Positions 29,271 to 58,953 are shown, counted from the first letter of the stretch. The stretch: 64,000 nucleotides of DNA from an uncultured Gemmataceae bacterium (GCA_963750165.1 CAVVPN010000003.1:896001-960000), one strand, 5' to 3'. Numbers and translations: made by a program. Notes: a model not told the origin generated them from the letters alone.

Positions 29271-30482
29271 ATGCGTCCCCTTCCCGTCCTGCTGGCGGCC
29301 GCGGCCCTGCTGGTGGTGGCCGTCCCCGCGGCTCGGTCCCAGAGCCTGGATTCATTCCCGTTCAACCCCCGGTTGCCGGCGCCGCCCGGCTGCTGCCAGC
29401 CTCTTTACCAGTACCCTGGCAGCCTGTATTCCATGCCGTCCCAGTCCCCCCAGACGCCCGACGGCAAGGAGACCAGCCCGCTGAGCACGCCTTCCTCGAT
29501 CGGCGACACGGCCGCGCAGGCCGGCGCCGCGCCGACCCCGTCCGCGGACGCCGGCACGGGGGCGGGCCAGAGCGCGGGTATCGGCTTTAACCCGGCCATG
29601 TTCGGCGATCTGATCGGCGGCCCGACGGTGATTACCAAGGTGCGCATCAACGGGAACAACCCGCTCACCACCACGCCGGGCGCGGTGCTCACCGCCACGT
29701 CGCGCCAACCGCTGCTGAACCGCGGCACGTTCAAGATCGCGGACAACGACAGCCCGCGGCCAGTGGACCGAGTCTTTGTCACCTACAACTATTTCGACAC
29801 CGTCAACACCTTCACCTCCGGTATCCCGGGCTTCAACGTCAACCGCGAGATGTTCGGCTTCGAGAAGACCTTCGCCTACGGCAACGGCTCGTTTCAGATG
29901 CGCTTGCCATACCTCCAGCTGGAGAACGCCGTCGGCGCCCCCAGCAGCAACATCTCGGGCGACATGACCCTGGTCCTGAAGTACGCCGTCATCAACGACC
30001 GGCAGACCGGCAACGTCCTGTCCGGCGGCGTGGCCTTGACGCTGCCCACGGGTGACTCGTTCCTCGCCGCGACGGGCGAGACCATTCACGACACCCTGAT
30101 CCAGCCGTGGGTCGGCTACATCTACAACCTGGACCGCCTGTATGTGCAGGGATACCTGGCCGTGGTGGTCCCCACCGACTCACGGGACGCGACCCTGCTG
30201 TTCAACGACATTGGCCTGGGCTACTGGGCCTACCGCAACCCCGACCCGACCGAGTTCTTCCGGGGCATTGTGCCGACCATCGAGGCCCACCTGCTCGACC
30301 CGCTGTCGCACCGCGGCTCGCAGAGCCTGCCGGTCGGCTTGCCGGACTACCTGACCTTCACGGGCGGCGTGAACTTCGTCTTCGGCACAAACTCGACCCT
30401 GGGATTCGCCCTCGGCACCCCGGTCACCGGCCCGCGGCCGTACAATTACGAGGGCACGGTCGCACTCAATATCCGTTTTTAG
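29271..30482 (+). CDS. Predicted outer-membrane beta-barrel protein
   Basis: Signal peptide, DSPRPVDRVFVTYNYF, amphipathic strands, C-terminal VALNIRF. Confidence 0.65.
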   Translation: MRPLPVLLAAAALLVVAVPAARSQSLDSFPFNPRLPAPPGCCQPLYQYPGSLYSMPSQSPQTPDGKETSPLSTPSSIGDTAAQAGAAPTPSADAGTGAGQSAGIGFNPAMFGDLIGGPTVITKVRINGNNPLTTTPGAVLTATSRQPLLNRGTFKIADNDSPRPVDRVFVTYNYFDTVNTFTSGIPGFNVNREMFGFEKTFAYGNGSFQMRLPYLQLENAVGAPSSNISGDMTLVLKYAVINDRQTGNVLSGGVALTLPTGDSFLAATGETIHDTLIQPWVGYIYNLDRLYVQGYLAVVVPTDSRDATLLFNDIGLGYWAYRNPDPTEFFRGIVPTIEAHLLDPLSHRGSQSLPVGLPDYLTFTGGVNFVFGTNSTLGFALGTPVTGPRPYNYEGTVALNIRF

Positions 30483-30670: not shown

Positions 30671-32104
30671 ATGTCCGCTCAACCGGTACACTGGCACGAG
30701 GGCATGTTCCTGCTGCCACAACACCTGCAGGCGGCGCAACGGCACGGCGCCCACCAAACCCGGCTCGGTGACAGGTGGACGCAGCACTACGGCTGGGGCC
30801 TGCGGGCCTGCGAGCTGGACCTCGACGCCCTTGCCAATCACCGCCTGGTAGTCCGTAAACTTCACGCCCGTCTGGGCGATGGCACCCTGGTCACCGTCCC
30901 CGAGGATGGCCTGCTGCCAGACCTGGACCTGCAGGGTGCGCTGGACCGCGTCGGCACGGTTCGCGTCTACCTCGCTGTGCCGACCTTTGACCTGAGCCGG
31001 GCCAACGTCTCGGTCAACGGCGCCGACGACCGGGCGCGCTACCGGGTGGACGCGCTGGAGCTGGAGGACGACAGCAGCGGCCAGCACCCCCAGCCGGTGG
31101 AGGTGCGCCGGCTGAACCTCAAACTGCTGCTCTCGACGGCGGACCGTGCCGGCTACGAGACGGTGCCGGTCGCCCAGCTCAAGAAGGCGGATCGCGCCGA
31201 GGCGGCGCCAGAGTTGGACACAGCCTACATCCCGCCGCTGCTGGCCTGCGACGCCTGGAAGCCGCTGGCCCGCGACATCCTCGAGCACCTCTACGACCGG
31301 GTCGGCGCTCTGCTCACCCGGCTTGCGGCGCTCGTGGTCTCGCGGCGGATCAGCCTGGAGAGTCAGTCCCCCGGCGACCGGCTGCTGCTGGAACAGTTAC
31401 GCGCCCTCAATGAGGCGTTCGCCTTGCTGCGGGTCATGACCTTCGCCCAGGGGGTGCATCCGTTCCCCGCTTACCTGGAGTTGTGCTGCCTGGTCGGCCG
31501 CCTGGTCATCTTCAGCCGAAAACTCGGCCCACGGACGCCGGCCGACCTGCCGCTGTATGACCACGACGACCTGGGGCGCTGCTTCTACGCGATGCGGGAT
31601 TACCTGCACGAGATCCTGGACTTTCGCCCCCCGGACTACCAGGAGCGGCCATTCACTCGCGAGCAGGACCGCATGGAGGTCAACCTCGAGCCGGAATGGC
31701 TCGACCCGACCTGGGAAATGTTCGTAGGCGTGGACACCCCGCTGACCACGGACCAGTGCGTCCAGTTACTCAGCCCCAGGGGGCTGGACATGAAGATCGC
31801 CAGCACCGCCCAGGTCGATGCGATCTTCAACCAGGGGCGGATGGGGCTGCTGTTCACCCACGCCCCGCAGCCGCCCTCGGTGCTGCCGGCCCGGCCCAGC
31901 CTGGTGTACTTTCAGGTGGACCGCAAGGCCGAGCCGGGCGTCTGGAAGGATGTCGAGGAGCAGCGGGCCCTGGCCCTGCGCGTCAACGGCGTCGCCAAGA
32001 AGGGCCCGAAGGACGCGGCCAACGAGGTCATCATCCGCGCCGGCGGCGGCCAGACCGCGGCGCTGAAATTCACCCTGTACGTCGTCCGCCGGCTGCACGC
32101 CTGA
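30671..32104 (+). CDS. tssK: T6SS baseplate subunit TssK
   Basis: VHWHEGMFLLPQHLQ, YIPPLL, HPFPAYLEL, YDHDDLGRCF. Confidence 0.92.
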   Translation: MSAQPVHWHEGMFLLPQHLQAAQRHGAHQTRLGDRWTQHYGWGLRACELDLDALANHRLVVRKLHARLGDGTLVTVPEDGLLPDLDLQGALDRVGTVRVYLAVPTFDLSRANVSVNGADDRARYRVDALELEDDSSGQHPQPVEVRRLNLKLLLSTADRAGYETVPVAQLKKADRAEAAPELDTAYIPPLLACDAWKPLARDILEHLYDRVGALLTRLAALVVSRRISLESQSPGDRLLLEQLRALNEAFALLRVMTFAQGVHPFPAYLELCCLVGRLVIFSRKLGPRTPADLPLYDHDDLGRCFYAMRDYLHEILDFRPPDYQERPFTREQDRMEVNLEPEWLDPTWEMFVGVDTPLTTDQCVQLLSPRGLDMKIASTAQVDAIFNQGRMGLLFTHAPQPPSVLPARPSLVYFQVDRKAEPGVWKDVEEQRALALRVNGVAKKGPKDAANEVIIRAGGGQTAALKFTLYVVRRLHA

Positions 32105-32139
32105 GCGGCCGCCGCCAACTCGCTGGGATTGCGCACGCC

Positions 32140-32868
32140 ATGCGTGAGGACATCGCCGAACTGGTGCATGCCGTGTTCCGGGGCGGGTTCCGCCTGAAAG
32201 AGCGGCTGGCCGCCGGGGAGCCCGTGGACCTCAAGGAGGGCCGCCGCGACCTGCTGCGGCTGCTCGACAACCCCCTGCTGCACGCCGGCGACAGGTACGA
32301 CCTGGGCGTCCACTACGCGCTGGTGTGCTGGCTGGACGAGCTTCTCATCGACGACACGCCGGCGGGCCAGCAGTGGAGCGAGGAGTTTTGCCTGGAGCAG
32401 GAACTCTATCAGACGCGCCTGCGGGCCCACAAGTTCTGGAACCCCGGCGTCAAGGCGGCCGAGGCGCGGCCCGGCGGCGACGTGCTGGAGGTGTATTACC
32501 TCTGCTACCTGCTCGGCTTCCGGGGCGATGAGGACAGCCGCCCCGCCGACCTGGCCGCCTGGGCCGAGCGCGTGCGGCCGCAGGTGATGCGCGGCTACGG
32601 CGAGGAACCGGCGCAGCTCGATAAGAGCACGCCGGACTCGGACGTGCCGTACCTGTTTGGGCGGTCGCAGTTCCGCAAGATGCTCCAGACGTGGGCCGTG
32701 GCGTTGTTGATCCTGGCCTTCGTGGTGGGCTTCCTGGTGGTCTACCGGTTCGGCTCCCGGGTCAGCGCCCACGCCGCAGCGTGGGCCGAGCATGCCGCCC
32801 GGCTGCATTGTGCTCCGGAGAGATCATGGGCTTCTTGCGTTGGATCTGGGACGGCCTCCGGCAACTGA
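32140..32868 (+). CDS. tssL: T6SS TssL/DotU, no OmpA domain
   Basis: YALVCWLDE, LEVYYLCYLLGFRG, C-terminal TM. Confidence 0.88.
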   Translation: MREDIAELVHAVFRGGFRLKERLAAGEPVDLKEGRRDLLRLLDNPLLHAGDRYDLGVHYALVCWLDELLIDDTPAGQQWSEEFCLEQELYQTRLRAHKFWNPGVKAAEARPGGDVLEVYYLCYLLGFRGDEDSRPADLAAWAERVRPQVMRGYGEEPAQLDKSTPDSDVPYLFGRSQFRKMLQTWAVALLILAFVVGFLVVYRFGSRVSAHAAAWAEHAARLHCAPERSWASCVGSGTASGN

Positions 32869-34427
32869 TCGGCCTGATTCTACCGATCTTTTCGAAGGCG
32901 GCCGACTTCCGGTCGTACAGCTCGGGCGCGAAAATCGCCCTGCACGTCCTCGTTTTGGTCGTGGTCCTGGCCGGGTTGACCTTCCTGCAGAACTGGGTGC
33001 TACTGAGTTTCACCCTGGCTTTCCCCAATCACCCGTACCTCAAATGGATGTGGCTGCCGGTCCTGTTCCTGCTGGTGTACGTCCTCGTCTGGCTGCTCTG
33101 GTGGCTGTGGCACATCCTCCTCAGCGAGGAGGCCGGCTCGGACTTCCCGGACCTGGACGCGGCCTGGGGCGAGATCAGCAAGGCCCTGCAGGCGGCGAAC
33201 ATTGCCTTGCAGGACGTGCCGTTGTACCTGGTGCTGGGCCGGCCGGCGGCGGGGGAGGCGGCGTTGTTCCACGCCGCCCGCCTGCCGTTTCTGGTCAAGC
33301 AGGCGCCGGGCCCGGACGCGCCGGTGCAGGCCTGGGCCAACCGGCAGGACGGCATTTACGTCGCCTGCGTGGACTCGTCGCGGCTCGGCTCCCGGGCGAG
33401 CCTGCTGGCGCTCACCGGGGCCGAGGACTCGGGCGGCGCCGCCGCGCCGCTGGAGTTCGACGCCGCGACCGCCACCATCGGCGGCGCCACCATCGGGGCC
33501 GGCATGCAGGTAAATGTCGGCGGGTTGCTGGACGAGCAACTGCCGGAGGGGGAGCGGCGGCGCCGGGCCAAGGCGCTGGACGTGGCGGACCAGCCGGAGC
33601 TGGCCCGGCGGTTGACGGCGCGGCTGGAGCACCTGTGCCGGCTCGTGGCCCGGGAGCGCTGGCCGGAGCCGCCCGTCAACGGCATCCTGGTGCTGATCCC
33701 GCACGTCGCCACGCAGTCGCGGGCGGCCGCGGAGGGCACGACGCGCGACTGTCAGCAGGATCTGGAATCGGTCTGGAACGTCTTCCGGCTGTCTTGCCCG
33801 CTGTTCGCGCTGGTGTGCGACCTGGAAAAGGCCCCGGGGTTCGCGGACTTCCTGGAGGGCCACCTGGCGCGCTGCCGGACCGAGGAGGAGCGGCGCAAGG
33901 AGCGGCGGCGGCGCCTGGGCCGCCGCCTGGGCTGGGGCGTGGGCATGGACCCGGCGACCCGCCGCAGCGCCATCGAGGAACAGGTTGGGTGGATCGGCCG
34001 CGGCATGTTCCCGCACCAGATCTACAAAAGCGTTTTCTACACGGAACGGCCGGGGCGTGAGGACCCCGCCGAGATCATCCGTCACAACTACCAGGTCAGC
34101 CGCTTCTTCAACGCCATGTTCCAGGGCCAGCGCTGGCTGACCGCCATCGTTCGGGACGGCCTGATTATCCGGCAGGACGGGCCGGAGTTACTGGGCGGCT
34201 GTTACCTGGCCGCCACCGGCCAGGACGCGGACCGCGAACAGGCGTTCGTCGCCGGGGTGTTTGAGCGCCTGCAGGAATCCCTCCGCCTGATTCGCTGGAG
34301 CGACGAGGCCTTTCAGGAGGACGCCCAGTACCAGCAGTGGACGCGCCTCGGCTATCTCGGCTTGCCGGTGTTCGTTCTCGTCGTGGCGGTGCTGCTGATC
34401 CTGTGGTGGCAACCGTTTGGGGGCTGA
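32826..34427 (+). CDS. tssM: Short TssM/IcmF-like protein (N-terminal domain only)
   Basis: N-terminal TMs, VPLYLVLGRPAAG, RLEHLCRLVARERWPEPPVNGILVLIP, C-terminal TM then stop; follows tssL. Confidence 0.75.
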   Translation: MGFLRWIWDGLRQLIGLILPIFSKAADFRSYSSGAKIALHVLVLVVVLAGLTFLQNWVLLSFTLAFPNHPYLKWMWLPVLFLLVYVLVWLLWWLWHILLSEEAGSDFPDLDAAWGEISKALQAANIALQDVPLYLVLGRPAAGEAALFHAARLPFLVKQAPGPDAPVQAWANRQDGIYVACVDSSRLGSRASLLALTGAEDSGGAAAPLEFDAATATIGGATIGAGMQVNVGGLLDEQLPEGERRRRAKALDVADQPELARRLTARLEHLCRLVARERWPEPPVNGILVLIPHVATQSRAAAEGTTRDCQQDLESVWNVFRLSCPLFALVCDLEKAPGFADFLEGHLARCRTEEERRKERRRRLGRRLGWGVGMDPATRRSAIEEQVGWIGRGMFPHQIYKSVFYTERPGREDPAEIIRHNYQVSRFFNAMFQGQRWLTAIVRDGLIIRQDGPELLGGCYLAATGQDADREQAFVAGVFERLQESLRLIRWSDEAFQEDAQYQQWTRLGYLGLPVFVLVVAVLLILWWQPFGG

Positions 34428-34589: not shown

Positions 34590-37500
34590 ATGGAACGGAC
34601 GGACGCCAACCGGGACGCACTCACCCCGGCGGATCAGCAGGTCCTGGAATCGTGGCTGCAGGAATTTGAACAATCCTGGCACGAGGACAAGCTCGGCCAG
34701 ACCCTCCATGAACTGCCAGCGGAGGGGACGCTGCGCCAGGTGGCGATGAGCGAGCTGACCAAGCTGGACCTGCGCCACCGCTGGCGTCGGGGCGAGCCGA
34801 AGAAAATCGAGTCCTACCTGAACGACATTCCCGATCTCGGCACGTCGGCCACGCTGTCGGTGGACCTGATCCGCGCAGAGGTGGAAGTGCGGCGGGAACT
34901 GGGCGAAGACGTCTCGGAGCAGGAACTGCTGACCCGCTTCCCGCTGCACGCGGACCAGCTGCGGGGCGAATTCTCGCAGTCCTGGCGCGCCGTCCCCGGT
35001 TCGCGGCCGAGCGCCTCGCTCTCGACCATCAACCCCATCGACACCCCGGCCCCGCGCACGGCTCCCGCCCCCGCTCCCCCGGCTCCCCGGCCCGCCGGCA
35101 AGGCCCCGGCGGCCGCCACGGCCCTGCCCCGGGCCGGCCAGCGCTACCGGATTATAACGAAGCACGACCAGGGCAACGTGGGCGAGGTGTTTCTGGCCCT
35201 GGACGAGGAGGTGCCGCGCGAGGTGGCGCTCAAGCGGTTGCAGGCCAAGTGCGCCGACGACCCGGAAACCCGCGCCCGCTTCCTCCGCGAGGCTGAAATC
35301 TGCGGACGGCTGGAGCACCCGGGCGTCGTCCCCGTCTACGGCCTGGGCGTCGATTCCGACGGCCGCCCCTTCTACGCCATGCGCTTCGTCAAGGGGGAGA
35401 GCCTCCGCGAGGTCCTGCGCCGCTTCCACGGCCAGGGGCCGCGCGACGCCGGTGCCCGCCGCGTCGAACTGCACAAGCTGCTCGGCCGTTTCATTACCGT
35501 GTGCCAGGCGGTGGAGTTCGCCCACCGCAGCGGCGTGCTGCACCGCGACCTCAAGCCGGCGAACATCATGCTCGGCGAATTCGGCGAGACCCTGCTCGTG
35601 GACTGGGGCATGGCCAAAATCCTCGGCCAGGACGAGGAACCGGGCGGCGACGTGGTCAGTGCGGTCGAGGCCCTGCTGCCGGACGCGCCGGGGGACGGAC
35701 AGGCATCCGCCGCGTCCGCCCAGTCCACCGCCCGCGGCCCGCAAGCGGACCTCACCCAGACCGGGCAGATTCGCGGCACCACCGCCTTCATGAGCCCCGA
35801 ACAGGCGGCCGGGAAGATCCACGAACTCACCCCGGCCAGCGACATCTACGGCCTGGGGGCGACGCTGTACCAGATCCTGACGGGCAAGCCGCCGTTCGAG
35901 GGGTCGGACCTCCGGCACATCCTGGGCCGGGTGCGGGCCGGCGACTTCCCGCGGCCGCGCAAGCTGGCCCCGGCGGTCCCGCCTGCCCTGGAGGCGATCT
36001 GCCTGAAGGCGATGGCACTGCGGCCGGGACAGCGCTACCCCTCGGCCCGGGCGCTGGCCGACGACCTGGAGCGCTGGCTGGCCGACGAGCCGGTGAGCGC
36101 ACTGCCCGAGCCGTGGACCGCGCGGGCCGGGCGCTGGCTGCGGCGGCACAAGGCGCTGGTGACCGGCGCCGTCGTCCTGCTGACGGCGGCGGTGGTCGCG
36201 CTGAGCGCCAGCACCGTGCTGATCGCCGAGGCCCAGCAGCGGACCGAGCAGCAGCGTGCGGCGGCGGCGGCGGCGGAGCAACAGGCCCGCGCCGCCTTCC
36301 AGGACGCGGACCACCAGCGCCAGCTCGCGGTCGCGGCGGAGCAGAAAATCAAGGGCGCCCTGGACAAGGTCGAGGTCGCCCGACAGGACGCCGAACGCCA
36401 GCGCATCAAGGCTGTGGACTCTCAGGAGAAGGAGGCCGAAGCCCGTGCGGCGGCGGAGCAGGCCCTTGCGAACGAGAAGGCGGCGCGGGAACAGGAGCAG
36501 GCGGAACGGAAGAAGCGGGCCCTGGCCGAGGCCGAGGGCCTCACCGAGGCCAACCCGGTCGCGGTGCGCAAGGTCATCGACATCCTGAAGTCCACCCCCC
36601 AGGACGTGCTGCCGCACGTGCTGCCGCGGCTGCGCGAACTCTGGGAGCGGAAAAAGCCGCCCCTGAGCCTCGGCCAGCGCCTCCGCGTCGGCGTGGCTCT
36701 GCTGATGCTGGACGACAAGGCGACCAGGGACATGCTCGCCGCGCTGCCCGGGTTGATGCTGCAGACGGACGACCCCGGGGAATTGCTCCTGGTGCGCGGC
36801 GCCCTGGAGCCGCACCGCGCGGCGGTGGCCCCGGCCCTGTGGCAGAAGGCGGACGACCCGAAGACGCCGAACGCCGAACGCTTCCGCGCGCTGGCGGCGC
36901 TGGCGGGGCTGGACGACGCGAAGGCCCGGTGGCACAACCCGACCTGGGCGCCGGCGAAAACCACTGCCGCCGGCACGCCCACGGCCTTTGTCGTCGAGCA
37001 CCTGCTGTCCGCCAACGCCCTGCGCCTGGGCCAGTGGGCCGAGGCGTTCCGGCCGGTCAGCGCGGAGTTGCTCGAGCCGCTGCAGGCGGCGTTCAAGGAC
37101 GCCCACCGACCGCACCGCGGGGTGGTGGCGGCGCGGCTGCTGGCCGACTTCGCCGCCGGGCTGCCCGAACTGCTCGCGGGACTGGCGCTGGACGCAAAGG
37201 ACGAGCAGTACCTGTTGCTGCGGCCGGTTTTGCTGGCCCACCCAGACCGGGCGGCGCCCGTGTTCCGCAAGGAGCTGGCGCGGCCGAAGCCGGACGCGCT
37301 GGACGCCCAGGTCGCCCTGGCGCGGCGGCAGGCGCACGCAGCGGTGGCCCTGCTCCACCTGGGCCAGGTGCAGGAGTCGGGGCGACTGCTCAAGCACGGC
37401 CCGGACCCGACGCTGCGGACGTTTCTGATCCACGCCCTGGGCCGGCGCGGCACCGACCCGGACCTGCTGGTGAAGCGGCTGAAGGCGACGGACGAGGTGT

Positions 37501-38619
37501 CGGAGCGGCGGGCGTTGATCCTGAGCTTCGGCGAGATCGCGGCGGGGCAGTGGCCGCTGGCGCGACGCCAGGAGGTGACCCAGGAATTGTTGAAGTGGTA
37601 TCGCGAGGACCCGGACCCGGGCGTGCATAGCGCCATCGACTGGCTGCTGCGGCACGGCATGCAGGGGCCGGTGCCGCGCAAACTGGACTGGCAGCAGGCC
37701 GCGGCGCTGGACAAACTCGACCGGAACCTTGCCGCCCTCGGCGACAAACTCCCGGTTGGTCGCGACTGGTTCGTCACAGCCCGGGGTGGGCACACGCTGG
37801 CAGTGGTCCGCAGACCTGTCGAGTTCTGGATGGGATCGCCTGCGGGCGAGCCACGGGGCTGGAGCTTTGACAACGAGGCGCTGCACCGCAAACGCATTCC
37901 CCGCTCCTTCGCGGTCGCCACGCGCGAGGTGACCGCCGCGCAGTTCAAGGCGTTTTTGCAAGCGCATTCGGAGCTGCAGAAGAAACACAAGCTGGAAAGC
38001 CAGGAGCGGTTCGGCCCCGACCCGGACGGGCCGGCGCTGGGGGTCACCTGGTCCGAGGCGGCTGCCTACTGCAACTGGCTGAGCAAGATCAACGGCATCG
38101 ACGCGGACCAGTGGTGTTACCAGATCAACGCCAGTTCCGGGGCCGTGAAAATGGCCCCCAATTTCCTCAACCTGCGCGGCTACCGCCTGCCCACCGAGTC
38201 GGAATGGGAATACAGCTGCCGGGCCGGCGCGGACCCGCTGGGGATTCGGCAACGGGGTCGCGATGCTGCCCGAGTACGCGTGGTTCTTCCTCACGAGCGA
38301 GGACCGCGCCTGGCCGGTGGGCCAGTTGAAGCCCAACGACCTCGGCCTGTTTGACATGCACGGCAATGCCTGGGAGTGGTGTCAGGATCGGGTGATGACA
38401 TTCGATTACCCGAAGAACGTGGCCGGCCAGGCCGTCGTGGAAACGCTGGAGCGGGAACTCACGCCTCTCGCGGCCAACCGGCGGTGTGTCATGCGTGGCG
38501 GTTCGTTCTTCAATCGAGCGCCCATCACCCGCTGTGCGCAGCGTTACCTTGGGAAAGTGCTGGGCGATCCGCCGGCCAACGACGCCGGCTTTCGGGTCGC
38601 ACGCACCATGCAACTCTGA
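34590..38619 (+). CDS. Membrane Ser/Thr kinase with helical repeats and C-terminal FGE-sulfatase (SUMF1) domain; frameshift near 38232
   Basis: VALKRL, HRDLKPAN, DWG, MSPEQ; TM; RLPTESEWEYSCRAG, KPNDLGLFDMHGNAWEW, GFRVART. Confidence 0.88.
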
Positions 38620-38747: not shown

Positions 38748-40524
38748 CTATTCCGGGACATCCACCAACACCACTCCGGTGGAGATACGCTCGCTCTCAG
38801 GACGAATGACCGTCCTGGGCGCTGGCGCTGGAGGGACCGCACCCGGGGCGGTTGGCGCCGGACCAGGAGGCTGCATCTCGATCGGTCTCGGGGCGTACCG
38901 CACCGGGAAGGCCGGCGCCGCGCCGGGTTGCACCGTGACAGCAGACGCTGGCGTGACCGGCGTCCATGCGGCCTGCCGGGGTGCGAACTGCACCGGGGTC
39001 GTCGGGGCGGGGTTGGTCCGCACCGGGATGATCGGCGCCGAGATGACCGGCGGCAGGGCGGCGGGCGGCTGGTCGAATCGCACCGGGGCTACTGGAGCCG
39101 GAGCGGCCGGCAGCGGGCCGGTTGACAGCGGAGCCACCGGAGCCGGAGCGGCCGGCAGCGGGTCGAATCGCACCGGACTGATCAGCGGGGGAACGGGGGG
39201 AAGCAGGGTCGCCGACGCCGTGAAGGACGCCGGGGCGGACGGCATCGGGGCGAATCCGGCCGTGGTGGCCGCCGCCGGGGCGACGCCCACCGGCGTGATT
39301 GGCGCCGGCGCGGGGTGCGGCGGCGCAACCGGCACTGGGTTGGTGCGCATCGAGGTGGCCGGCGCCGGGGCGGCCTGCTTCGGAACGGCCTGTTTCGGAA
39401 CGACCTGCTTCGGAGCGACGCGCGCCGGGGATTCCGGGGTAGCGTTGAGGGAGTTTTCAATCACGCCGAAAAAGCTGGCCTCGGGGCGGGGCGACGCGGA
39501 CGGCGACGCGGGCATGGCGTTCCCCATCTTCTCGAGGGCTTTCCGCGAATTGGCCACCACCTGAGCCAGCGTCATTTTCTCGATGCGCTGATAATAAGAA
39601 AGCGCGCCGGCGCCCTTGGCGGGCGTGCTGCCGGGGTTTGCGGGCGTGGCCGCGGCGGTTTTGGCGGGCGCCTCGCTGGCGGCCTTGGCGGGCGTGGTAC
39701 CGGCGGTCTTGGTGGGCGCCGCTCCCGCCCTGGCGGGCACTTCCGGCGGGAGGGCCTCCACCGGTTTCTTGTCGAGTTCCCGAAGGGGCGGCCCTTCCAC
39801 CAGCGGGGGTTCGATGGGCACCAAGTCCGGGGGCACCGCCGCCGCGAAGCGGGCCAGGCAGGAGTTCAGCGCCATCCAGGCGGTGGCCCGCACGCGCTCC
39901 GAGGCCTCCGGCGGTCGGCCGTCCTCGTCGTTACAGGTCACCGTCAACGTCAGGGCCTGAATGGTGGACCTGGTGCAGCAGCAGCCGCGGCCCAGCGCCA
40001 GCGCCGCCTCCCAGCGCACGCACTCGTTACGGTCGGCGCAGGGCGTTAATCAGCGCCTCCTGTGCCTCGGGCCAGTAGCGGCAATCGACCGTGCCCAGGT
40101 AGCGGACGTCGGCCCGGCGCGCCTTGGCGGCGGCCTCGTCGGCCTTGACCAGGGCGGCGGCCCCTGTCGGGCTGTCCGCCGGCGCCGCCAGCTGCGCGGC
40201 GGTCGGCAGGTCCGGGCAGCAGTTCCCGAGGATGCCGCCGCTGAAGACGCGGATGGGGGCCAGGCTGTTGTTGAAGAACTGCCCCACCGGCGAGGCACAG
40301 AACTTCGCCTTGCAGTAGGCACAGGTGGCGATCAGGTTCGCGATCTTGGTCCCGGCCGGTGGGCCGGCCGCGGGGACGACGGCGGCAGCCGGTGCTGCCG
40401 CGAGGGGCCCGGCCGCGGCCGGCGCCACCGGCACGGCCGCGGCCGGCACGGCCGGAACCTGACCGCGAGCGGCTGGCAGCAGCAGGGCCACCAGCACCAC
40501 TGGGGCGCCGAATTTCTTCCACAT
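38748..40524 (-). CDS. Exported Cys-rich HEAT-repeat protein with Pro/Ala-rich tail; frameshift near 40036
   Basis: Signal peptide; VRYLGTVDCRYWPEAQEALINALR joins DRNECVRWEAALALGRGCCC. Confidence 0.7.
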
Positions 40525-40965: not shown

Positions 40966-42224
40966 ATGAGGTGGGAGTCAAGTCAGCCCCGTGGGGGCAA
41001 GGCGAAGGTTTGGGCGTTCGGGTTGACGTGCGTGGCCCTGTTGACCGGGGTTGCGCCGGCGCTGGCGCAGAAGCCTACTGACGCCCCGCCGACGAAGCTG
41101 TCGGACCTCGCCGCCCCGACGTTGGCGGCGGCGCCGGCGGCGCCGGACGCCAACGTGACCCAGGCGAGCTGCAGCACCTGCTCCGGCGGACTGCTCGGCG
41201 GCTCGCTCGGCGGCCCGCCGCCGCTCCCCGGCGACGGCGGCGGCTGCGGCGGTGGCGGCTGTGGCGGCGGTCAGTGCGTCCCGGGGCGATTGAACTGTTG
41301 CAGCTGCTGCGAGGGCCAGACCTGCCTGGGCCGCATGCTCTGCGGGTTCTACGAGTGCATCTGCTGCCCCGACCCCTGCTACGATCCACACTGGATCGCC
41401 CTCGCCGACTCCGCCCTCTTCGTGAACGCGCCCCGGCCCGTCACCCAGATGCACTGCGCTACGACGGCATTTACGGCATCCCGTTCGCGGATCGGGCTGA
41501 ATACTACTTCGCCCGGGACACGGGCACCCCGGCGGGCGGCGGCCGCGGGCCGAACTTCAACATGGCGCGCCTCGTCAACATCAATCAGCTGAGCCTGTAT
41601 AACGAAGCGGCCCTGGGGCGGTTCAGCGCCTTCATCGCGGTCCCGTACAACGAGGTCCACCGCGACACCGACTTCGGCTACAGCGTCGCCAGCTCCGGCT
41701 TCGGGAACCTGAGCGTCGGCACCAAGTCCATGTTACTCGACTGTGAGTTGCTGCAGATCACGTTGCAATTCACCACGTACATCCCCACCGCCAGCCCCGG
41801 CGGCGGCCTGGCAAACGGCCACGTGAGCCTGGAACCGGCCCTGCTGTTCGCGTTAAAGTTGACCCCCGAATCGTACTTCCAGGGGGAACTGGCCCAGTGG
41901 ATTCCGGTCGGCGGGGACACAATCTACCAGGGGAACGTGTTCCACTCCCACTTCAGCTTCAACCACATCCTGTGGCGTTTCCTCCCCGACGTGCAGTTGA
42001 TCGGGACGATGGAGCTGAGCGAGTGGTCGGTGTTGAACGGCAACTTCACCGACCCGTTGACCGGCGCGATCCAGCGGGCGGCCGGGTCCGCCTGGAGCCT
42101 CGGGCCGGGCCTGCGGTTAAACATCTGCAACCGGATCGACTTCGGCGCGGGGGTGCAGTTCGGCGTCGGCTCAGATCGGTGGTATGACGAGAACTTCCGG
42201 GCAGAATTCCGGTGGCGCTTCTGA
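40966..42224 (+). CDS. Predicted outer-membrane beta-barrel protein with Cys-rich N-terminus; frameshift near 41453
   Basis: Signal peptide, NAPRPVTQ, SGFGNLSVGTK, C-terminal AEFRWRF. Confidence 0.65.
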
Positions 42225-42442: not shown

Positions 42443-43579
42443 ATGCTCGCCACGGACACTCTGAACCTCGACAGGCTAACGGCCCCCATCTCCGCGGAAC
42501 ACCCCACCGGCGTGGACCTGCGCAGCGACCGCTCCCCCAACTCCCTCTACCGGCAGATTCGCGACGTCCGCGACACCGCCAAGACGGCGGAGCGGCAACT
42601 CCTCGTGGACGACGAGGAAGGCGGCGGGACAACACCCCCGGACTGGGTACCGGTGTTCGACCTGACCCGGCAGGCCCTCGCGGAAAAAACCAAGGACCTG
42701 GAACTCACGGTCTACCTGCTGGAGGCTCTGGTGCGCCGCGACGGCCTGGCCGGGCTGTCCGCGGGCTTCCACCTGATCCGTGAGTTGTGCGAGCGCTACT
42801 GGGACCAGCTGTATCCCGGCGCCGGTGCCGGTGCGGGGCTCGCGGACCGGGTCGCCCCGCTGGCGGGCCTGAACGACGTGGATGGCCTGATCCTGGAGCC
42901 CATGAACACCCTGCCGATCACGGAGGCCAGTGCCGCGGGGGGGCCGTACGATGGCGTGCGCTATCAGAAGGCAGTGGACCTGACCACGCGCGACGAGGCG
43001 ACGCGGCAAAAGCGCATTGCGGCGGGGACGATGCCGCTGGAGGCGCTCCAGGAGGCGGCCCAGGGGACCTCGCCGGAATTCTACGCGCGGGCGGTGGCCG
43101 CCCTGGCGGAATGCACCGATGCGCTGGAGCAACTGGGGGCCGTGCTGCAGGCGAAATGCGGCCGCGACGCGCCCTCCACGGCGCGGATCCGCGCCGCCCT
43201 GCAAAAATACGGCGAGGCGCTGCGCGGCGTGGCGAAGGACAAGGTGGCCGCCGCCATGCGGCCGCCCGGCGCGCCGCCGGCGCCGGCCGGCGCCGACGGG
43301 CCGGCGCCACCCGCGGCGGCGGCCCCGCTCCGGCCCGACGGGCCGCCGCCGACCCCCGGGCCCATCGGCAGCCGGGAGGAGGCGTTGCAAACCCTGCTGA
43401 AGGTGGCGGAATTTTTTCGCCGCACCGAGCCGCACACTCCGGTATCATATGCCCTGGAGGAGGCCGTCCGCTGGGGCAGGATGAAGCTGCCGGATTTGCT
43501 GGAAGAACTGATCGCCGACGAGGGGACACGGCAGCAGGTGTTCAAGCGGGTGGGCATCCGGCCGCCGTCCGCCGGGTGA
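42443..43579 (+). CDS. tssA: T6SS TssA
   Basis: [40 protein letters not shown]. Confidence 0.92.
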
Positions 43580-43620
43580 GGCCCGCCAACCGATTTCACG
43601 AGAAAGCGAGCGTTCAGACC

Positions 43621-44151
43621 ATGTCGCGCAGCATTCACGACGAGCTGAGTATGGTCCGCAAGCCCCGGGTACACATCACCTACGCGGTGGAAACCGAAGG
43701 GGCAGAGGTCGTCAAGGAACTGCCCTTCGTGGTGGGCGTCCTGGGCGACTTCTCAGGCAACCCCACCGAGCCGCTCAAGCCGCTGAGCGAGCGCAAGTTC
43801 ATCCAGATCGACCGGGATAATTTCAACGACGTGCTGCGGCGGATGACGCCGGGGCTGAACCTGCGGGTGGCGAACACCCTGAAGGACGACGGCAGCGAAC
43901 TGCCGGTGCAGCTGAAATTCAACTCGCTGGACGACTTCACGCCGGGCCAGGTGGTCAAGCAGGTGGAGCCGCTCCGCAAGTTACTCGAGGCCCGCAACAA
44001 GCTCCGCGACCTGTTGACGCGCGTGGACCGATCCGAAAAACTGGAGGGCCTGCTCGAGGAGGCCCTGCAGAACACCGAAAAACTCAAGCAATTCACGCCG
44101 GGTTCGGGCGGCGATGCCGCGGGCGACGCGAAGAAGGGGGGTGACTCGTGA
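43621..44151 (+). CDS. tssB: T6SS sheath small subunit
   Basis: [31 protein letters not shown]. Confidence 0.95.
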
Positions 44152-45635
44152 GCCCGAAGGAACAGGCACAGGGCCGGCCGGCCGCCGAGACCCAGGAGGT
44201 CAGCCTCCTGGAGGAGGCCATCAAGCTCACCAAAACCGAGCGGTCCCAGGCCGAGGACATGCTCAGTAACCTCGCCGAGTGGGCGCTGAACAACACCATC
44301 ACCTGGGACAAGAACGTCACCCGGTCGATCAAGAAGGGCATGGAGGTCATCGACCAGATGATCTCGCGGCAGCTGGCCGCCATCATGCACGCGCCGGAGT
44401 TCCAGAAACTCGAGGGGACGTGGCGCGGCCTGCACTACCTGGTGCAGAACTCGCGGACCAGCGCCCAGCTCAAGCTCAAGGTGTTCAACGTCTCCAAGAA
44501 GGAACTGCTCAAGGACGTCGAGTCGGCGGTCGAGTTCGATCAGAGCCAGATCTTCAAGAAGGTATACACCAGCGAGTTCGACATGCCCGGCGGCGAGCCG
44601 TACGGGGCGCTCATCGGCGACTACGAATTCACCAACCACCCCGACGATCTGACGCTGGTCAGCAAGATGTCGAACGTGGCGGCGGCGGGGTTCTGCCCGT
44701 TCCTGACGGCGGCCTCGCCGGAGCTGTTCGGCTTCGACAAGTGGACCGAACTGTCCAAGCCGCGCGACCTGGAGCGGATCTTTGACACGGTCGAGTACAC
44801 GAAGTGGAAGTCGCTCCGCAACTCGGAGGACGCGCGCTTCGTCACGCTCACGCTGCCGCGCGTCCTGGCGCGGCTGCCGTACGGGGCGCAGACGAAGCCA
44901 ATCGAGGAGTTCGCCTACGAGGAGTTCGAGCAGAACCGCACGAGCAAGCCGCAGCCGGCGCCGCACGACCACTTCACGTGGATGAACGCCGCCTACGTGC
45001 TCGGCGTGCGGCTGACGGATGCGTTCTCGCAGTATGGCTTCTGCGTGGCCATCCGCGGGGCCGAGGGCGGCGGCATGGTGCAGGGGCTGCCGCCGTACAT
45101 CTTCACCAGCGACGACGGCGACCCGGACCTCAAGTGTCCGACGGAGATCGGCATCACCGACCGCCGCGAGAAGGAGCTGAGCGACCTGGGCTTTCTGCCG
45201 CTGTGCCACTACAAGAACACCGATTACGCGGTCTTTTTCGGCGCCCAGACGGCGCAGAAGCCCAAGAAGTACGACCGGCCCGAGGCGACCGCCAACGCCG
45301 CCATCTCGGCGCGGCTGCCGTACATCATGGCGACGTCGCGCTTCGCCCACTACCTCAAGGTAATGGCCCGCGACTGGATCGGCTCGCTGATGGAGGCTTC
45401 CGACACCGAAGCGCGGCTGACGCGCTGGATCATGAATTACGTCAACAACAACGAGAAGGCCTCGCAGGAGGAAAAGGCCCGCTACCCGTTGCGCGACGCG
45501 AAGGTGCAGGTCAAGGAGATTCCCGGCAAGCCCGGCTCGTACAACGCCATCGCCTGGCTGCGGCCGTGGCTGCAGCTGGAGGAGCTGAACGCCTCGCTGC
45601 GCATGGTGGCCCGCATCCCGCAGCTGGGCAGCTAG
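44148..45635 (+). CDS. tssC: T6SS sheath large subunit
   Basis: [38 protein letters not shown]. Confidence 0.95.
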
Positions 45636-45652
45636 AGCGGTTGGCGTTTGGG

Positions 45653-45711
45653 CGTAGCGGAAGTCGCCAGACTTCCGAAGCCGCTACGGAAGTCTGGCGA
45701 CTTCCGCTACG
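45653..45711. repeat. Perfect 25-bp GTAG-type REP-like inverted repeat
   Basis: CGTAGCGGAAGTCGCCAGACTTCCG-N9-CGGAAGTCTGGCGACTTCCGCTACG. Confidence 0.85.
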
Positions 45712-45886
45712 AACAGATCGCTACACCCGACCGCGATGCGCGCTAGGCCGGCGGCCACGGTTACTTCGAGCCTTTTTCCCGAGCGGACCCGTTTATGTTT
45801 CGCGCGCTGCCGGTGCGCGGAACGTAAACGCATTCCGCGGAGCGGCAGCGCCGAGTGCGCAGTGAACTCCTTACCCCTGGATTGAG

Positions 45887-47510
45887 ATGGACCCCTCCGC
45901 CGGCGCCGCCGCCCTTCCCCCAAGCGTCCCCCAGACCGCACTGGTAGACGCCCCGGCCCCGGCGTTCGCGAGCCCGCCCGCGGCGGTCGGCCTGCTCGAC
46001 CACCTCCTGCAGGCGGCCCAGTCCGCCAGCAACCACGCCACCCACTGGCTGGACCGCTTTCTCGCGGAAACCTCCCTGGAGCAGGCGCTGGCGTTCTGGT
46101 GCGCGCGCAGCGCGACCGGGCCGCGGACCCGCCAGGAACTGGCCCAGTCCCTGAGCCGCGACATCGCCCGCCTCGACGCACTCCTGAGCCGGCAAGTCAA
46201 CGCCATCCTGCACCACCCGCAGTTCCAGCAACTGGAGGCCTCCTGGCGGGGGTTGCACTACCTTGTGGAGCAGGCCGGCGCGGCCGAGACGGCGAAAATT
46301 CGGGTCCTCAACCTCTCCTGGGCCGAACTGACGCGCGATCTCGACCAGGCCCTGGAGTTCGATCAGAGTCAGCTGTTCCGCAAGGTGTACGAGGGCGAGT
46401 TCGGCATGCCCGGCGGCGAGCCGTTCGCGGTCCTGCTCGGGGACTACGAGGTCCGGCCGCGGCCCACGGCGGAGCACCCCCACGACGACATCGCCACGCT
46501 GGCGGCCGTCGCCCGGGTGGCGGCGGCGGCCTTCGCGCCGTTCATCGCCGCGGCCCATCCGTCTCTGCTGGGGCTGGACAGTTTTACGGAGTTGGAGCGG
46601 CCCCCGAACCTGGCGCGGGCGTTCGACCAGCTGGAGTACCTCACCTGGCGGCGGCTGCGGGACGGCGAGGACGCCCGCTTCGTCGGGTTGACGATGCCGC
46701 GCGTCCTGTGGCGGCTGCCCTACCGCGACGACGGCACCCGCGTCGATGGGTTCGCGTTCAGGGAGGAAATCGAGGATCCGGCGCGGCGGCAGTACCTGTG
46801 GGGCAACGCCACCTACGCCTACGGCGCCGTGCTGCTGCGGGCGTTCGACGAAAACGGCTGGCTGGCGAACATCCGCGGCGTGCATCGCGACCCGGACGCC
46901 GGGGTCGGCGGCGGCGGCCTGGTGACCGGGCTGCCGGTCCACGCCTTCCGCACCGACCACCTGGGCGTCGCCGTCAAGTCGTCCACCGACATCCAGCTCA
47001 CCGACTTCCTGGAGAAGGAGCTGAGCGAGCTGGGCTTCTTGCCACTGTGCCACTGCCCGGACACCGAGGTGTCGGCGTTCTACAGCAGCGCGTCGGTGCA
47101 GAAGCCGCGCCGCTTCCAGGAGGCGGCGGCCACGGCCAGCGCCCGGCTGTCGGCGATGCTGCACTGCCTGCTGTGCGCCTGCCGGTTCGCCCACTACCTC
47201 AAGGTGATGATGCGCGACAAGCTGGGCGGCTTCACCGGCCCGGCCGAGTGCGAGGCGCACCTTGACGCCTGGCTGCGCGGCTACACGACCGCCACGAACG
47301 ACGACGACATCAGCTCGTCGGTGCGCCGCCGCTACCCGCTGCGCGAGGGCGCGTCCGCGTCCGCGAACACCCGCGCAAACCGGGGAGTTACACCTGTGTC
47401 ATGTACCTTCGCCCGCACTTCCAGCTGGACCAGGTGGTCACCGCGGTCAAGCTGACCACCGAACTGGTGCCGATGACCAGCTCGACGGCCCGGAAAGGAC
47501 CCCGCCATGA
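45887..47510 (+). CDS. tssC: Second TssC paralogue; frameshift near 47348, exact end uncertain
   Basis: [37 protein letters not shown] lies in the shifted frame. Confidence 0.88.
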
Positions 47511-48307
47511 GCGCAGCAGACGATTTTCAGGCCGGGCGGCTGCGGGAGGCCGTCGCCGCGCAGACCGAGGCGGTGCGCCAGCACCCGGACGACCCGGCCC
47601 GGCGCGTCTTCCTGGCGGAACTGCTGTGTTTCGCCGGCGACCTGCCGCGCGCCGACAAGCAGCTCGACGCCACCGCCCACCTGAACCCCAAACTGACGCC
47701 GGGCATTAGCCTGCTCCGCAACCTGATCCGGGCGGAGCAGGCGCGGCAGCAGTTTTACAGCGACGGCCGGCTCCCCGAATTTCTGGAGGAGCCGTCGCCG
47801 GTGTTCCGGCTGCACCTGGAGGCGTCGATCTGTCTGCGCGAGGGCAAGCCGGCCGACGCGTCGGCCCTGCTGGCGCAGGCCGAGGCGCAGCGCGTCCGTG
47901 TGAGCGGCACCTGCGACGGCACGCCGTTCCAGGGGCTTCGCGACCTGGACGACCTGACCGCCCCCGTCCTCGAAGTCCTGGCGACCAACGGCAATTACTA
48001 CTGGATCCCGATCGAGCGCGTCGAGCGGGTGCAGTGCGAGGCGCCGCGGCAGCCGCGCGACCTGCTGTGGCGGCGCGCCCAGCTGGCGGTGAGCGGCGGG
48101 CCGGACGGCGAGGTCTACCTGCCCACCCTGTATGCCGGCGCTGCCGCGGAGACGGACGATGGCCTGCGCCTGGGGCGCCGCACCGACTGGCGCGGCGGCG
48201 ACGGCGCGCCGGTGCGCGGCGTGGGCCAGCGCATGCTGCTGGTGGGCGGCGAGGCGCGGTCGATCCTGGAACTGCGCGACCTGACCGTGGAACAACCGCC
48301 CGCCTGA
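47507..48307 (+). CDS. tagJ: T6SS accessory TagJ/ImpE
   Basis: LCFAGDLPRADKQL, YYWIP, PRDLLW, YLPTLY, LGRRTDW, GVGQR. Confidence 0.9.
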   Translation: MSAADDFQAGRLREAVAAQTEAVRQHPDDPARRVFLAELLCFAGDLPRADKQLDATAHLNPKLTPGISLLRNLIRAEQARQQFYSDGRLPEFLEEPSPVFRLHLEASICLREGKPADASALLAQAEAQRVRVSGTCDGTPFQGLRDLDDLTAPVLEVLATNGNYYWIPIERVERVQCEAPRQPRDLLWRRAQLAVSGGPDGEVYLPTLYAGAAAETDDGLRLGRRTDWRGGDGAPVRGVGQRMLLVGGEARSILELRDLTVEQPPA

Positions 48308-48318
48308 GGAGGCACCCC

Positions 48319-48812
48319 GTGGCCCGTGTCAAACCCGACCAGCCGCTCGTGCCCTCGGTGCTGGACCGCCTGCTCGACGACGAGCCGGGCGTGTCCACCG
48401 AGGCGCCGCGCTCGCGCGGCCAGGTGCTGCGCGAGCTGAAGCTGTCCGTGCAGCGCGACCTGAATCACCTGCTGAACACCCGCTGGCGGTGCCGGCACTG
48501 GCCGGCGGACCTCAAGGAACTGGGGCAGTCGCTGGTCAACTACGGCATCCCGGATTTCGCCGGCAGCAACCTGGCCTCCGCGGACAGCCGCCGGGCGCTG
48601 TGCCGCATCCTGGAGGACGTCATCCGGGCGTACCAGCCGGCCTTTTTGAAGGTCACCGTCCGTGTGCGCGACGACGACGAGCCGCTCGACGGCACGCTGC
48701 GCTTCCGCATCGACGCCCTGCTGCGCGTACATCCGCGCCGGAACCGGTTACCTTCGACCCGGACCTGGAACTGGACACCGGGACATTCAAGTTCGAGGCG
48801 CCGTCCCCATGA
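48319..48812 (+). CDS. tssE: T6SS TssE; frameshift near 48732
   Basis: PSVLDRL, RDLNHLLNTR, SLVNYGIPD. Confidence 0.9.
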
Positions 48813-50639
48813 GCGACGACCTGCTGGCGTATTACAACAAGGAACTGAGCTACCTCCGCCACCTGGGCGACGCCTTCGGCCGGGCGCACCCCAAGATCGC
48901 CCGCCGGCTGCGCCTGGACGCGGGCGCCAGCGACGACCCGCACGTCGAGCGCCTGCTGGAGGGCTTCGCCTACCTGAGCGCCCGCATCCGGCACAAGCTC
49001 GACGACGACCTGCCGGAAATCAGCGACGCCCTGCTCGGCGTGCTCTACCCGCACTACCAGGCGCCGGTGCCGTCGCTGGCGCTGGTGCAGTTCGCCCTGG
49101 ACCCGGGGCAGGCCGAGCTGGCGCAGGGCTACGCGCTCCCGGCCGGCACCGCCCTTGAGGCCGAGGCGCCCGACGGGGGGACCTGCTCCTTCCGCACCTG
49201 CTACCCGGTGACGCTCTGGCCGCTGGCGGTGCATGAGGCGGGCCTGCGCAAGCCGCCGTTCACCGCCCCGGTGACGCCGTTCTCCGGCAAGGCGGCGGCG
49301 GTGCTGCGGCTGTCGCTGCGCGGCCTCGCGCCCGCCCTGCCGCCGGCGCAACTGGAACTGGATGTGCTGCGGCTGTACCTGAAGGGCCAGCCGCAGCACA
49401 TCTACCCGCTGTACGAACTGCTGCACAAGGACACGCTCGGGGTCGCGGTGGCGGCGTCGGCCAACGACCCCGAGCCGGCCGTCCTGCCGCGGTCCTGTGT
49501 GCGGCCCGTCGGCTTCGACCGCGCCGAGGGCGCCCTGCCCTACACGGCCCGCTCGTTCCTGGGCTACCGGCTGTTGACCGAGTACTTCACGTTCCCGGAG
49601 AAATTTTTGTTCGTGGACCTGGCAGGGCTGCGCGGGCGACGGCCGCGCCGCCCCGGCGCGGCGCTGGAGGTCTACTTCTACCTGAGTCACTGGTCGAAGG
49701 ACCTGGAGCAGAACGTCACGGCGGACACGTTCCGGCTCGGCTGCACGCCGGTGGTCAACCTGTTCGCGCACCGCGCCGACCCGATCGAGCTGACCCAGAC
49801 TGAGTGGGAGTACCGCGTCGTGCCCGACCGCCGCCGGCCCGCGGGGCTCGAGGTGTACTCGGTGGACCGCGTCGTCGCCAGTTCGCCCGACGGCGCGGCC
49901 GTCGAGTACCGGCCCTTCTTCTCCACCCGGCACAGTCAGGAGGGCGAAGCGCCGGCGCCGTTCTGGTTCGCCACACGGCGGCCGTCCGAGGTGCCCGACG
50001 ACGCCGGGACCGAGGTGTACCTGTCGCTGGTCGATCTGAACCTGCGGCCGGCGGCGCCGGCGGCGTGGACCGTCACCGTGGAGACGACCTGCCTGAACCG
50101 CGACCTGCCGCGGCAGCTGCCCTACGGCGGCGACCAGCCGCGGCTGACGCTGAGCGCGGGCCGTGGCCCGGTGGGGGACATCCGCTGCCTGACGCCACCC
50201 ACGCCGACGCGCCGGCCTGCCCTCAAGCACGGGGCCATGTGGCGACTGATCTCGCACCTGACGCTGAACCACCTGTCCGTTGTGCATGACGGCGACGGTG
50301 CCGCGGCGCTCCGCGAGATCCTCAAGCTGTACGACTTCGCCGGCTCCGCCGAGACGCTGGCCCTGATCGACGGCCTGCGCGGCGCGCGGGCGGCCCGCCG
50401 TGGCGCGCGTCGGCCCGCCGGGCCGGTCGGCCGTCTGCCGCGGCGTCGAGGTCGCGCTGACGTTCAACGCCGAGAAGTTCGCCGGGCAGGGGGCGTACCT
50501 GTTCGCGTGCGTGCTGGAGCGGTTCCTGGCGCTGTACTGTTCGGTCAATTCGTTTACCCGGGTCGTCGCCACCGTTGAGGGGCGCGAGGGGGTGTGGTGT
50601 CAATGGCCGCCGCGGGCTGGGGAGATGATCTTGCTCTGA
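48809..50639 (+). CDS. tssF: T6SS TssF; frameshift near 50389
   Basis: YYNKELSYLR, DPHVERLLEGFA, GYRLLTEYF, CTPVVNLF; SVNSFT...WPPRAG in the shifted frame. Confidence 0.92.
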
Positions 50640-58945: not shown

Positions 58946-58953
58946 GGTGCGGC

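Follow-up and report, generated by a model that had tools for sequence, protein, structure and literature searches.

Planctomycete type VI secretion systems with a short TssM that lacks the periplasmic half, and candidate genes for its replacement

A type VI secretion system (T6SS) whose TssM lacks the entire periplasmic half is encoded on a stretch of 64,000 nucleotides (the window) from an uncultured Gemmataceae bacterium (GCA_963750165.1 CAVVPN010000003.1:896001-960000). The genome (G000) comprises 9.6 Mb on 12 contigs and is 93.3% complete. Three neighbouring genes on the plus strand encode the part of the machine that meets the inner membrane. The gene tssK (30671..32104) encodes the baseplate-to-membrane adaptor of 477 amino acids (PF05936, E 1e-73; TIGR03353 above cut-off). 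It is followed by tssL (32140..32868), translated as a short form of 242 amino acids with one transmembrane helix (TM) and a match to PF09850, and by a short tssM of 533 amino acids (32826..34427), the start of which overlaps tssL by 43 bp. Canonical TssM consists of an N-terminal part of 387 amino acids with three TMs and a periplasmic part of 744 amino acids, the C-terminus of which binds TssJ (PMC3213119). The canonical membrane complex serves as baseplate anchor and as channel (PMC6517824, PMC10433429), and TssM's C-terminal periplasmic domain has been described as required for T6SS function (PMC4256274).

An earlier reading of the window, made without database searches (the sequence-only reading), had described the TssM-like gene as about 530 codons long and ending in WWQPFGG directly behind a TM. 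This description holds: hydrophobic helices lie at about residues 37, 76 and 508, and the stop codon follows right after the third, leaving a tail of about 7 amino acids. The protein has the layout of the IcmF/TssM family, with a TM hairpin, a P-loop-like, GTPase-like cytoplasmic domain and a third TM, and IcmF-related_N (PF14331) is its sole Pfam match (E 1.8e-8, above cut-off). The P-loop position reads GRPAAGEA, degenerate as had been noticed, and the Walker A lysine is absent. A Walker A motif (GxxxxGK[ST]) within residues 80-260 occurs in one of 233 short homologues versus the N-terminal parts of four of four canonical controls. An AlphaFold model of short TssM made from 48 relatives (predicted local distance difference test, pLDDT, 87) has a GTPase-like core closed by the last helix. 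In structural comparison it comes closest to small GTPases (Z about 10 over model residues of about 125-490), a middling score that many rows share. Foldseek with the model returned nothing at E<=0.001, a PDB sequence search with short TssM gave no match, and an NCBIfam scan left the protein without any match.

The sequence-only reading had also held that the roughly 160 bp before the next gene leave no room for a missing part hidden by a frameshift. The distance is 162 bp from the tssM stop to the ATG of a Ser/Thr kinase gene, and no TssM-like sequence follows the stop. The kinase gene (34590..38619, plus strand; Pfam) includes an FGE-sulfatase domain and is split by a frame change near 38300, with the FGE domain spread over two frames. 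Its frame is open directly behind the TGA stop of tssM and in frame with it (34428-34589). In 11 of 11 other loci the frame closes within 5-115 codons past tssM, and the tssM stop is TGA, TAG or TAA; the in-frame kinase therefore looks like chance. Rescue of tssM by read-through or frameshift was ruled out, and a fusion would place the kinase on the periplasmic side.

Homologues of the short protein are numerous and end alike. A word-based search, for which lengths of 293-933 were eligible, returned 97 proteins including the query at 30-63% identity, and a search unlimited in length returned 962 clusters at E<1e-30, the best 150 of which all measure 381-629 amino acids. Among the pooled homologues (n=233), 221 have at least 480 amino acids (502-629, median 545). 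A C-terminal TM is present in 216 of these 221, with a tail of at most 15 amino acids in 209 of the 216 (median 5). A search among longer proteins gave three weak matches covering 11-15% of the query, all longer than 1180 amino acids, and a related-locus search with the TssM protein alone gave none. A profile of short TssM (A1) matches the N-halves of four canonical TssM proteins (E 1e-12 to 1e-19). Short TssM is not an artefact at the level of the family, because hundreds of homologues at 30-63% identity stop at the same place, and these comparisons argue that it is a conserved family and not a broken gene.

No gene for the missing half was found in the remainder of the genome. Across the whole genome, full-length TssM (TIGR03348) was absent, the best matches to IcmF_C (PF06744) and TssJ (PF12790) remained below the cut-off (E 0.17 and E 0.2, respectively), and a search with the TssM protein found only itself; a second tssM and a separate IcmF-C gene were both looked for in this genome and not found. 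Relatives obtained in the searches carry the labels Gemmataceae and Planctomycetota, which indicate a planctomycete source. In a survey of one sample of 191 genomes of the class (at least 90% completeness), which we infer to be Planctomycetia, profile A1 matched in 79 genomes and TssC in 79, with both in 77. Short TssM is hence present in 77 of the 79 TssC-positive genomes versus 2 of the 112 TssC-negative ones, so that relatives carry the same short gene. None of the findings that the sequence-only reading had named as refuting it therefore turned up. The best A1-matching open frames span 308-822 amino acids in 78 genomes (median 554) and 1382 amino acids in one, G455. Searches for TssJ and for the TssM periplasmic domain (PF06761) covered the 80 genomes besides G000 that are positive for short TssM or TssC. 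TssJ was found in none of the 80 and PF06761 in one, again G455, a match that shows the PF06761 search to be able to detect the domain. The gene in question (L109:997-6395, G455:C97) encodes a canonical TssM of 1357 amino acids beside a TssL of 431 amino acids. Its contig measures 9.9 kb, is possibly foreign or a contaminant and belongs to a genome in which TssC gave no match.

Outside the class, 160 genomes were sampled of about 270 in the phylum sample. IcmF-N matches occur in 36 of the 160, each in an open frame of 1124-1736 amino acids; PF14331 scores short TssM weakly, so this survey shows full-length forms and could miss short ones outside the class. Many of these frames are unusually long, 1430-1740 amino acids (L130, L131, L139, L142, L143 and others). 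The TssJ profile PF12790 matches E. coli and three of ten sister-class genomes with full-length TssM, so that it may overlook diverged forms and a missing TssJ carries less weight. The long TssM proteins without a TssJ match in the other seven of the ten perhaps represent another non-canonical complex.

The absence of a recognisable tssJ and of an OmpA domain in TssL, both claimed by the sequence-only reading, was confirmed, and each is a weak sign when taken alone. A simple lipobox scan of C3:920000-972000 gave no candidate, and Acinetobacter is described as having a T6SS without TssJ as well (PMC10564176). In TssL, DotU is the only match of the first 230 amino acids, and the TM, from residue 184, is followed by a tail of 40 amino acids, too short for an OmpA domain. 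The tail has a median of 6 amino acids in 44 TssL copies from short-TssM loci, none of which reaches 100, and a median of 30 in 11 copies from canonical loci. TssL without OmpA is an already described form (PMC10433429), and the DotU domain and TM are present as in T6SS-i. The unusual feature is the class-wide loss of the entire TssM periplasmic half, more than the missing TssJ or OmpA domain, and the design is common to many related planctomycetes.

The other parts of the machine are those of a T6SS-i. The tail module (42443..58177, plus strand) holds tssA, tssB, tssC, a second tssC, tagJ, tssE, tssF, tssG, an open reading frame (ORF) of unknown family, clpV, hcp and vgrG. Pfam verified tssA, both tssC genes, tagJ, tssE, tssF, tssG, clpV, hcp, vgrG and a PAAR-like gene downstream, and tssB was assigned by its position and by clustering with the genes beside tssC in relatives. 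The tail, baseplate and spike set (TssA, B, C, E, F, G, K, ClpV, Hcp, VgrG, PAAR) is complete, as the sequence-only reading had stated, with frame changes in some genes. The system is a T6SS variant of proteobacterial type that extends across the class.

Gene maps of 18 genomes and further loci revealed recurring unannotated genes, among them two giant proteins, BIG1 and BIG2. In G000 the locus continues beyond the window edge (63789..64000), and the two lie 0.7-9 kb past the window end. BIG1 (1708 amino acids, G000:C3:960707-965833, equal to L031:1707-6833) begins about 700 bp beyond it, and BIG2 follows in two pieces, L031:6861-7847 (328 amino acids) and L031:8098-10056 (652 amino acids). 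BIG1 consists of one N-terminal TM, an inactive caspase-like domain, a helical core, an immunoglobulin (Ig)-like domain and a vWA domain with a MIDAS. A model of residues 70-1140 (pLDDT 86) has a long helical core of about 600 residues and then the Ig-like domain. The caspase fold matches 6w8r (Z 18.5, root-mean-square deviation 3.1, 219 residues aligned, model residues 5-271). At the positions that we assign by motif to the catalytic dyad, His is present in 24 of 34 sequences and Cys in none of 34 (one column earlier in four rows), and the His-Cys dyad is absent. The MIDAS residues of vWA are retained in 28-30 of 34. By the positive-inside rule the N-terminus would be inside in 32 of 34 BIG1 and 9 of 11 BIG2 proteins, with the bulk outside the cytoplasm. 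BIG2 is a paralogue of BIG1 and is found whole (about 1530-1900 amino acids) or split in two.

The BIG1 core profile matches in 69 of the 79 TssC-positive versus none of the 112 TssC-negative genomes and the BIG2 C-part profile in 53 of 79 versus none of 112; one or the other is found in 73 of the 79. Of the 69 genomes, 23 have BIG1 no farther than 12 kb from short tssM and 45 no farther than 40 kb from tssM or tssC, and tssM adjoins BIG genes in G120, G183, G255, G303 and G417. Fold searches with the BIG1 model listed no TssM structure; caspase and Ig domains filled the results, which barely covered the helical core. A PDB sequence search with BIG1 returned vWA only, and the Atlas gave no usable match. 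A complex prediction of short TssM with BIG1 residues 30-345 scored 0.00 in two runs in which the controls remained unfolded, and it was used neither for nor against a contact. In the members mapped, a second subtype (family f86; L087-L096, L119-L122) has a TssM of about 440-525 amino acids, a single BIG of about 1280-1350 amino acids and an FHA protein, carries no HEAT protein and in some members has a long TssA (610-650 amino acids). Additional TssC-like genes that have diverged strongly (E about 1e-12 to 1e-62) were seen in G261, G330, G333, G366, G439, G312, G367, G405 and G417, frequently near BIG or HEAT genes.

Two further candidates lie between the kinase gene and the tail module. A HEAT-repeat, Cys-rich protein with a signal-peptide-like N-terminus (38748..40524, minus strand) is spread over two frames here, with the change near 40036, and is one gene in relatives. 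Strong matches (E<1e-15) occur in 63 of the 79 TssC-positive and 2 of the 112 TssC-negative genomes; 21 genomes whose best match was weaker were excluded as generic HEAT repeats. Divergent from it lies B2 (40966..42224, plus strand; frame change near 41452), a protein like an outer-membrane beta-barrel (PF13557-like, C-terminal Phe) that is found in 52 of the 79 TssC-positive genomes and for which a PDB sequence search gave nothing significant. The two genes are at most 4 kb apart in 36 of the 50 genomes that hold both, and they are fused in G405 and G417, which belong to one genus. The fusion proteins, of 1351 amino acids in G417 (L104:9783-13838) and 1458 in G405 (L108:2729-7105), are built of a signal peptide, the HEAT domain, a long Pro-rich linker and a C-terminal barrel. 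The HEAT protein is a candidate periplasmic partner of B2.

We propose a hybrid membrane complex, which on the gene content we regard as somewhat probable: a short TssM-TssL pair would dock the baseplate, and the BIG, HEAT and barrel proteins would replace the TssM periplasmic half and TssJ. The docking step is highly probable from the established function of these proteins; with cytoplasmic domains and membrane helices retained, the short forms of TssM and TssL would hold the TssK-EFG baseplate to the inner membrane, and in TssM the GTPase-like domain would act as a scaffold and not as an active NTPase. Given the observed co-occurrence, BIG1 and BIG2 very probably belong to this T6SS, and a structural role, deduced from it, is moderately plausible. 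One or two of these single-pass giants, with the N-terminus inside and the bulk in the periplasm, would replace the TssM periplasmic pillars. Oligomers would form through the inactive caspase-like domain near the membrane, with the helical core bridging the periplasm and the Ig and vWA domains at the far end reaching the cell wall or the outer membrane. More tentatively, in the major subtype the secreted HEAT protein and B2 might supply the outer-membrane anchor, as TssJ does elsewhere. A single barrel of the size of B2 is probably too narrow for the Hcp tube, and B2 would therefore be an anchor or part of a ring and not the pore. Tube and VgrG-PAAR spike would be fired outward at neighbouring cells.

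Several observations weigh against this proposal. The steps beyond docking are drawn wholly from gene association, and the related genomes are not independent of each other; the possible oversight of short TssM in the sister classes counts in the same direction. Neither BIG match was obtained in 6 of the 79 TssC-positive genomes, and among the 69 genomes with BIG1 the gene sits on a different contig in 20 and is separated from tssM and tssC by over 400 kb in 4. That the BIG1 core profile matched in none of 15 sister-class genomes with full-length TssM speaks for the proposal, but the profile was made within the class and applied without a positive control. The HEAT protein is absent from 16 TssC-positive genomes, all of one family, and B2 is absent from 27 and present in 5 TssC-negative ones, so that the outer-membrane-anchor step is not general. 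In G000 itself, frame changes affect the second tssC, tssF, the HEAT gene and B2, the tssE frame continues into tssF, and BIG2 lacks about 570 middle residues seen in relatives, which were not found elsewhere in the genome. By one method, frame changes affect 10 of 73 genes outside the locus (about 14%) and 2 of 7 within it. These rates are in keeping with indel noise throughout the assembly, in which broken genes therefore need careful reading; the approximate breakpoints show no long homopolymers. The copy in G000 may be decaying; the short-TssM family is not.

On another reading, the short tssM would itself be a truncated pseudogene, an assembly error or a gene rescued by frameshift or read-through. 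The altered frames, the shortened BIG2 and the open kinase frame behind the tssM stop all suit such an explanation, and rescue of a tssM by frameshifting is known from Citrobacter (PMC4256274). We consider it highly improbable, as hundreds of homologues end alike, the frame closes in all of the other loci, no TssM-like sequence follows the stop and the frame changes fit assembly noise; for the short-TssM family as a whole the conserved stop refutes it. It is also conceivable that TssM is split, the BIG helical core and Ig domain being its diverged periplasmic half with an anchor of its own, and the channel homologous to the canonical one. The order of parts in the BIG1 model resembles the TssM periplasmic domain, which has about 500 helical residues and then a beta domain (PMC3213119), and BIG genes frequently adjoin tssM. 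The BIG1 and BIG2 profiles gave nothing significant against four canonical TssM proteins (best domain E 0.012), however, PF06761 matches no genome with BIG proteins, and TssM has no counterpart to the N-terminal caspase-like domain or the vWA domain, which makes a split TssM improbable.

The machine may alternatively form no channel at all. The short TssM-TssL pair would then anchor a tail that pierces cell wall and outer membrane without a guide, perhaps at sites where both membranes are kept near each other, while BIG, HEAT and barrel proteins would act with the kinase as contact sensors or positioning factors. Ligand sensing would be in keeping with a protease fold that is inactive and a vWA domain whose MIDAS is intact; related loci repeatedly contain kinases (8 of the genomes mapped) and, in one subtype, an FHA protein, and the crateriform structures of Planctopirus join both membranes (PMC5394234). 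We judge this unlikely, since the canonical complex also shields the envelope of the attacker during firing (PMC6517824), a helical core of about 600 residues is big for a sensor, and the presence of BIG in 73 of 79 systems and in none of the 112 genomes without TssC is a pattern nearer to core parts than to optional sensors. The sequence-only reading had left two ways open, another route across the envelope or firing across the inner membrane only. The first receives indirect support from the co-occurring genes with predicted products in the periplasm and outer membrane. The second, in which the tail would fire into the cell's own enlarged periplasm, for instance at prey or material taken up, or would have a use other than as a weapon, has less and is quite unlikely. 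TssM and TssL are both nearly devoid of periplasmic residues, the planctomycete periplasm is enlarged and takes up macromolecules (PMC5394234), and the 16 systems of one family do without the HEAT protein, all of which would suit it. Against it stand the outer-membrane barrel gene in 52 of the 79 TssC-positive genomes and the VgrG-DUF6484-PAAR-DUF2169 module, of a kind described from interbacterial systems (PMC13373197), together with its SMI1/KNR4 gene, which is read as immunity-like.

Concerning the history of the system, a FastTree tree of N-halves separates 31 short from 20 full-length TssM proteins by a single branch (support 100). Being unrooted and having its short rows chosen with profile A1, the tree permits a single origin of short TssM at most. 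In an IQ-TREE tree of 33 TssC proteins, restricted to the best TssC of each region, 6 changes are required to account for the 21 rows that come from short-TssM genomes (starred branches force no fewer than 5), and the TssC of the window groups with Pseudoalteromonas, Rhizobium and one sister-class genome. This suggests tails of several origins on one kind of dock, that is, one TssM lineage and several TssC lineages. Extending the hybrid complex to a doubtful but possible history, the envelope complex could be the third to have been built independently in T6SS, after TssJLM and TssNOPQR. The class ancestor would have cut TssM to a dock once and recruited the giants with inactive caspase and vWA domains and the HEAT-barrel pair to bridge the wide, variable planctomycete periplasm, and the tails of several TssC lineages would have been swapped onto this chassis.

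The canonical T6SS-i of enteroaggregative E. coli has the same tail and baseplate and the same TssK-TssL-TssM order. The window differs from it in lacking the TssM periplasmic domain of about 740 amino acids, which is described as binding TssJ and forming the channel (PMC3213119, PMC6517824), in lacking TssJ and the Walker A lysine, and in having BIG, HEAT and barrel genes instead. In its workings the system is like T6SS-i, yet two features that define the canonical membrane complex are missing. The nearest annotated locus, on a plasmid of Pseudoalteromonas sp. THAF3 (NZ_CP045419.1), encodes a TssC 69% identical to that of the window and has the identical order tssA-B-C-C-tagJ-E-F-G-clpV-hcp-vgrG; unlike the window, it has tssJ, a long TssL and a TssM of 1173 amino acids.

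Replaced envelope parts have precedents in TssNOPQR of Bacteroidota (PMC10781749) and TsmK of Acinetobacter (PMC10564176). The Acinetobacter complex of TssL, TssM and TsmK is likewise described without TssJ and with lineage-specific proteins co-opted (PMC10564176, PMC13584744), yet it keeps and extends the TssM periplasmic part that the window system lacks. TssNOPQR of T6SS-iii is also a lineage-specific envelope complex, described from T6SS genomes only, combined with a baseplate and tail that are conserved (PMC10781749); homologues of TssJLM are absent from T6SS-iii, whereas the window keeps TssL and the inner half of TssM. TssN-R families were absent from the Pfam and NCBIfam matches of the candidate proteins, with no search aimed at them. 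TagP of the Pseudomonas putida K1-T6SS is likewise a TssM derivative without the normal periplasmic domain (PMC10433429), in which a peptidoglycan-binding domain serves as replacement, and is listed as an accessory factor (PMC13584744); in contrast, nothing but the short tail follows the third TM of the window TssM, and the short gene is the only tssM found in its genome. Citrobacter rodentium tssM1 also stops early, but a run of 11 A permits slippage to full length (PMC4256274), and the window has neither such a run nor downstream TssM sequence. The T6SS-iv of Amoebophilus is likewise contractile and described without a canonical trans-envelope channel (PMC10433429); it lacks TssJ, L, M and ClpV, whereas the window has TssL, short TssM and ClpV. 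In the literature searched, with subscription journals largely outside its scope and supplements excluded, we found no description of a planctomycete short TssM, and 'planctomycet' is absent from the main text of a 2026 review of accessory factors.

In 77 of the 191 class genomes sampled, about 40%, a T6SS is present and the only TssM that can be recognised is without the periplasmic domain. If these machines fire, the channel is either dispensable or rebuilt from unrelated parts, and both options are relevant to the question of how the tube gets through the envelope. The candidate genes make this question testable in cultured planctomycetes, for which genetic tools exist (PMC5394234). If true, the proposed design would explain why standard annotation can call these systems incomplete, NCBIfam having no match for short TssM.

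The remaining genes of the window flank this core. Behind vgrG lies a spike accessory module (58214..63788, plus strand) with DUF6484, PAAR-like, SMI1/KNR4, an unknown ORF, a DUF2169 region and a HEAT protein. SMI1/KNR4 genes are read as immunity-like, and an effector/immunity-like pair lies within the module at 59361-60540. In the DUF2169 region, genes have apparently run together in the present assembly. With the order vgrG-DUF6484-PAAR-like-SMI1/KNR4-unknown-DUF2169-HEAT, the module resembles the class II Tvp spike module (PMC13373197). The unknown ORF between tssG and clpV (51728-52288) encodes 186 amino acids. Directly upstream of tssK lies a barrel-like protein, B1 (29271..30482, plus strand), whose membership in the T6SS is doubtful; its family occurs in 105 of the 191 genomes, more than 40 of which are TssC-negative by hand count, and B1 was set aside as a T6SS-specific part. 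Divergent from it, a large surface-type protein with PKD and DUF4214 domains is encoded in two ORFs at 24937-28811 on the minus strand, and B1 may be its partner instead of belonging to the T6SS. Proteins of about 2850-3040 amino acids lie within other T6SS loci (G319, G408, G416), and a B1-like gene adjoins them in G319 and G408.

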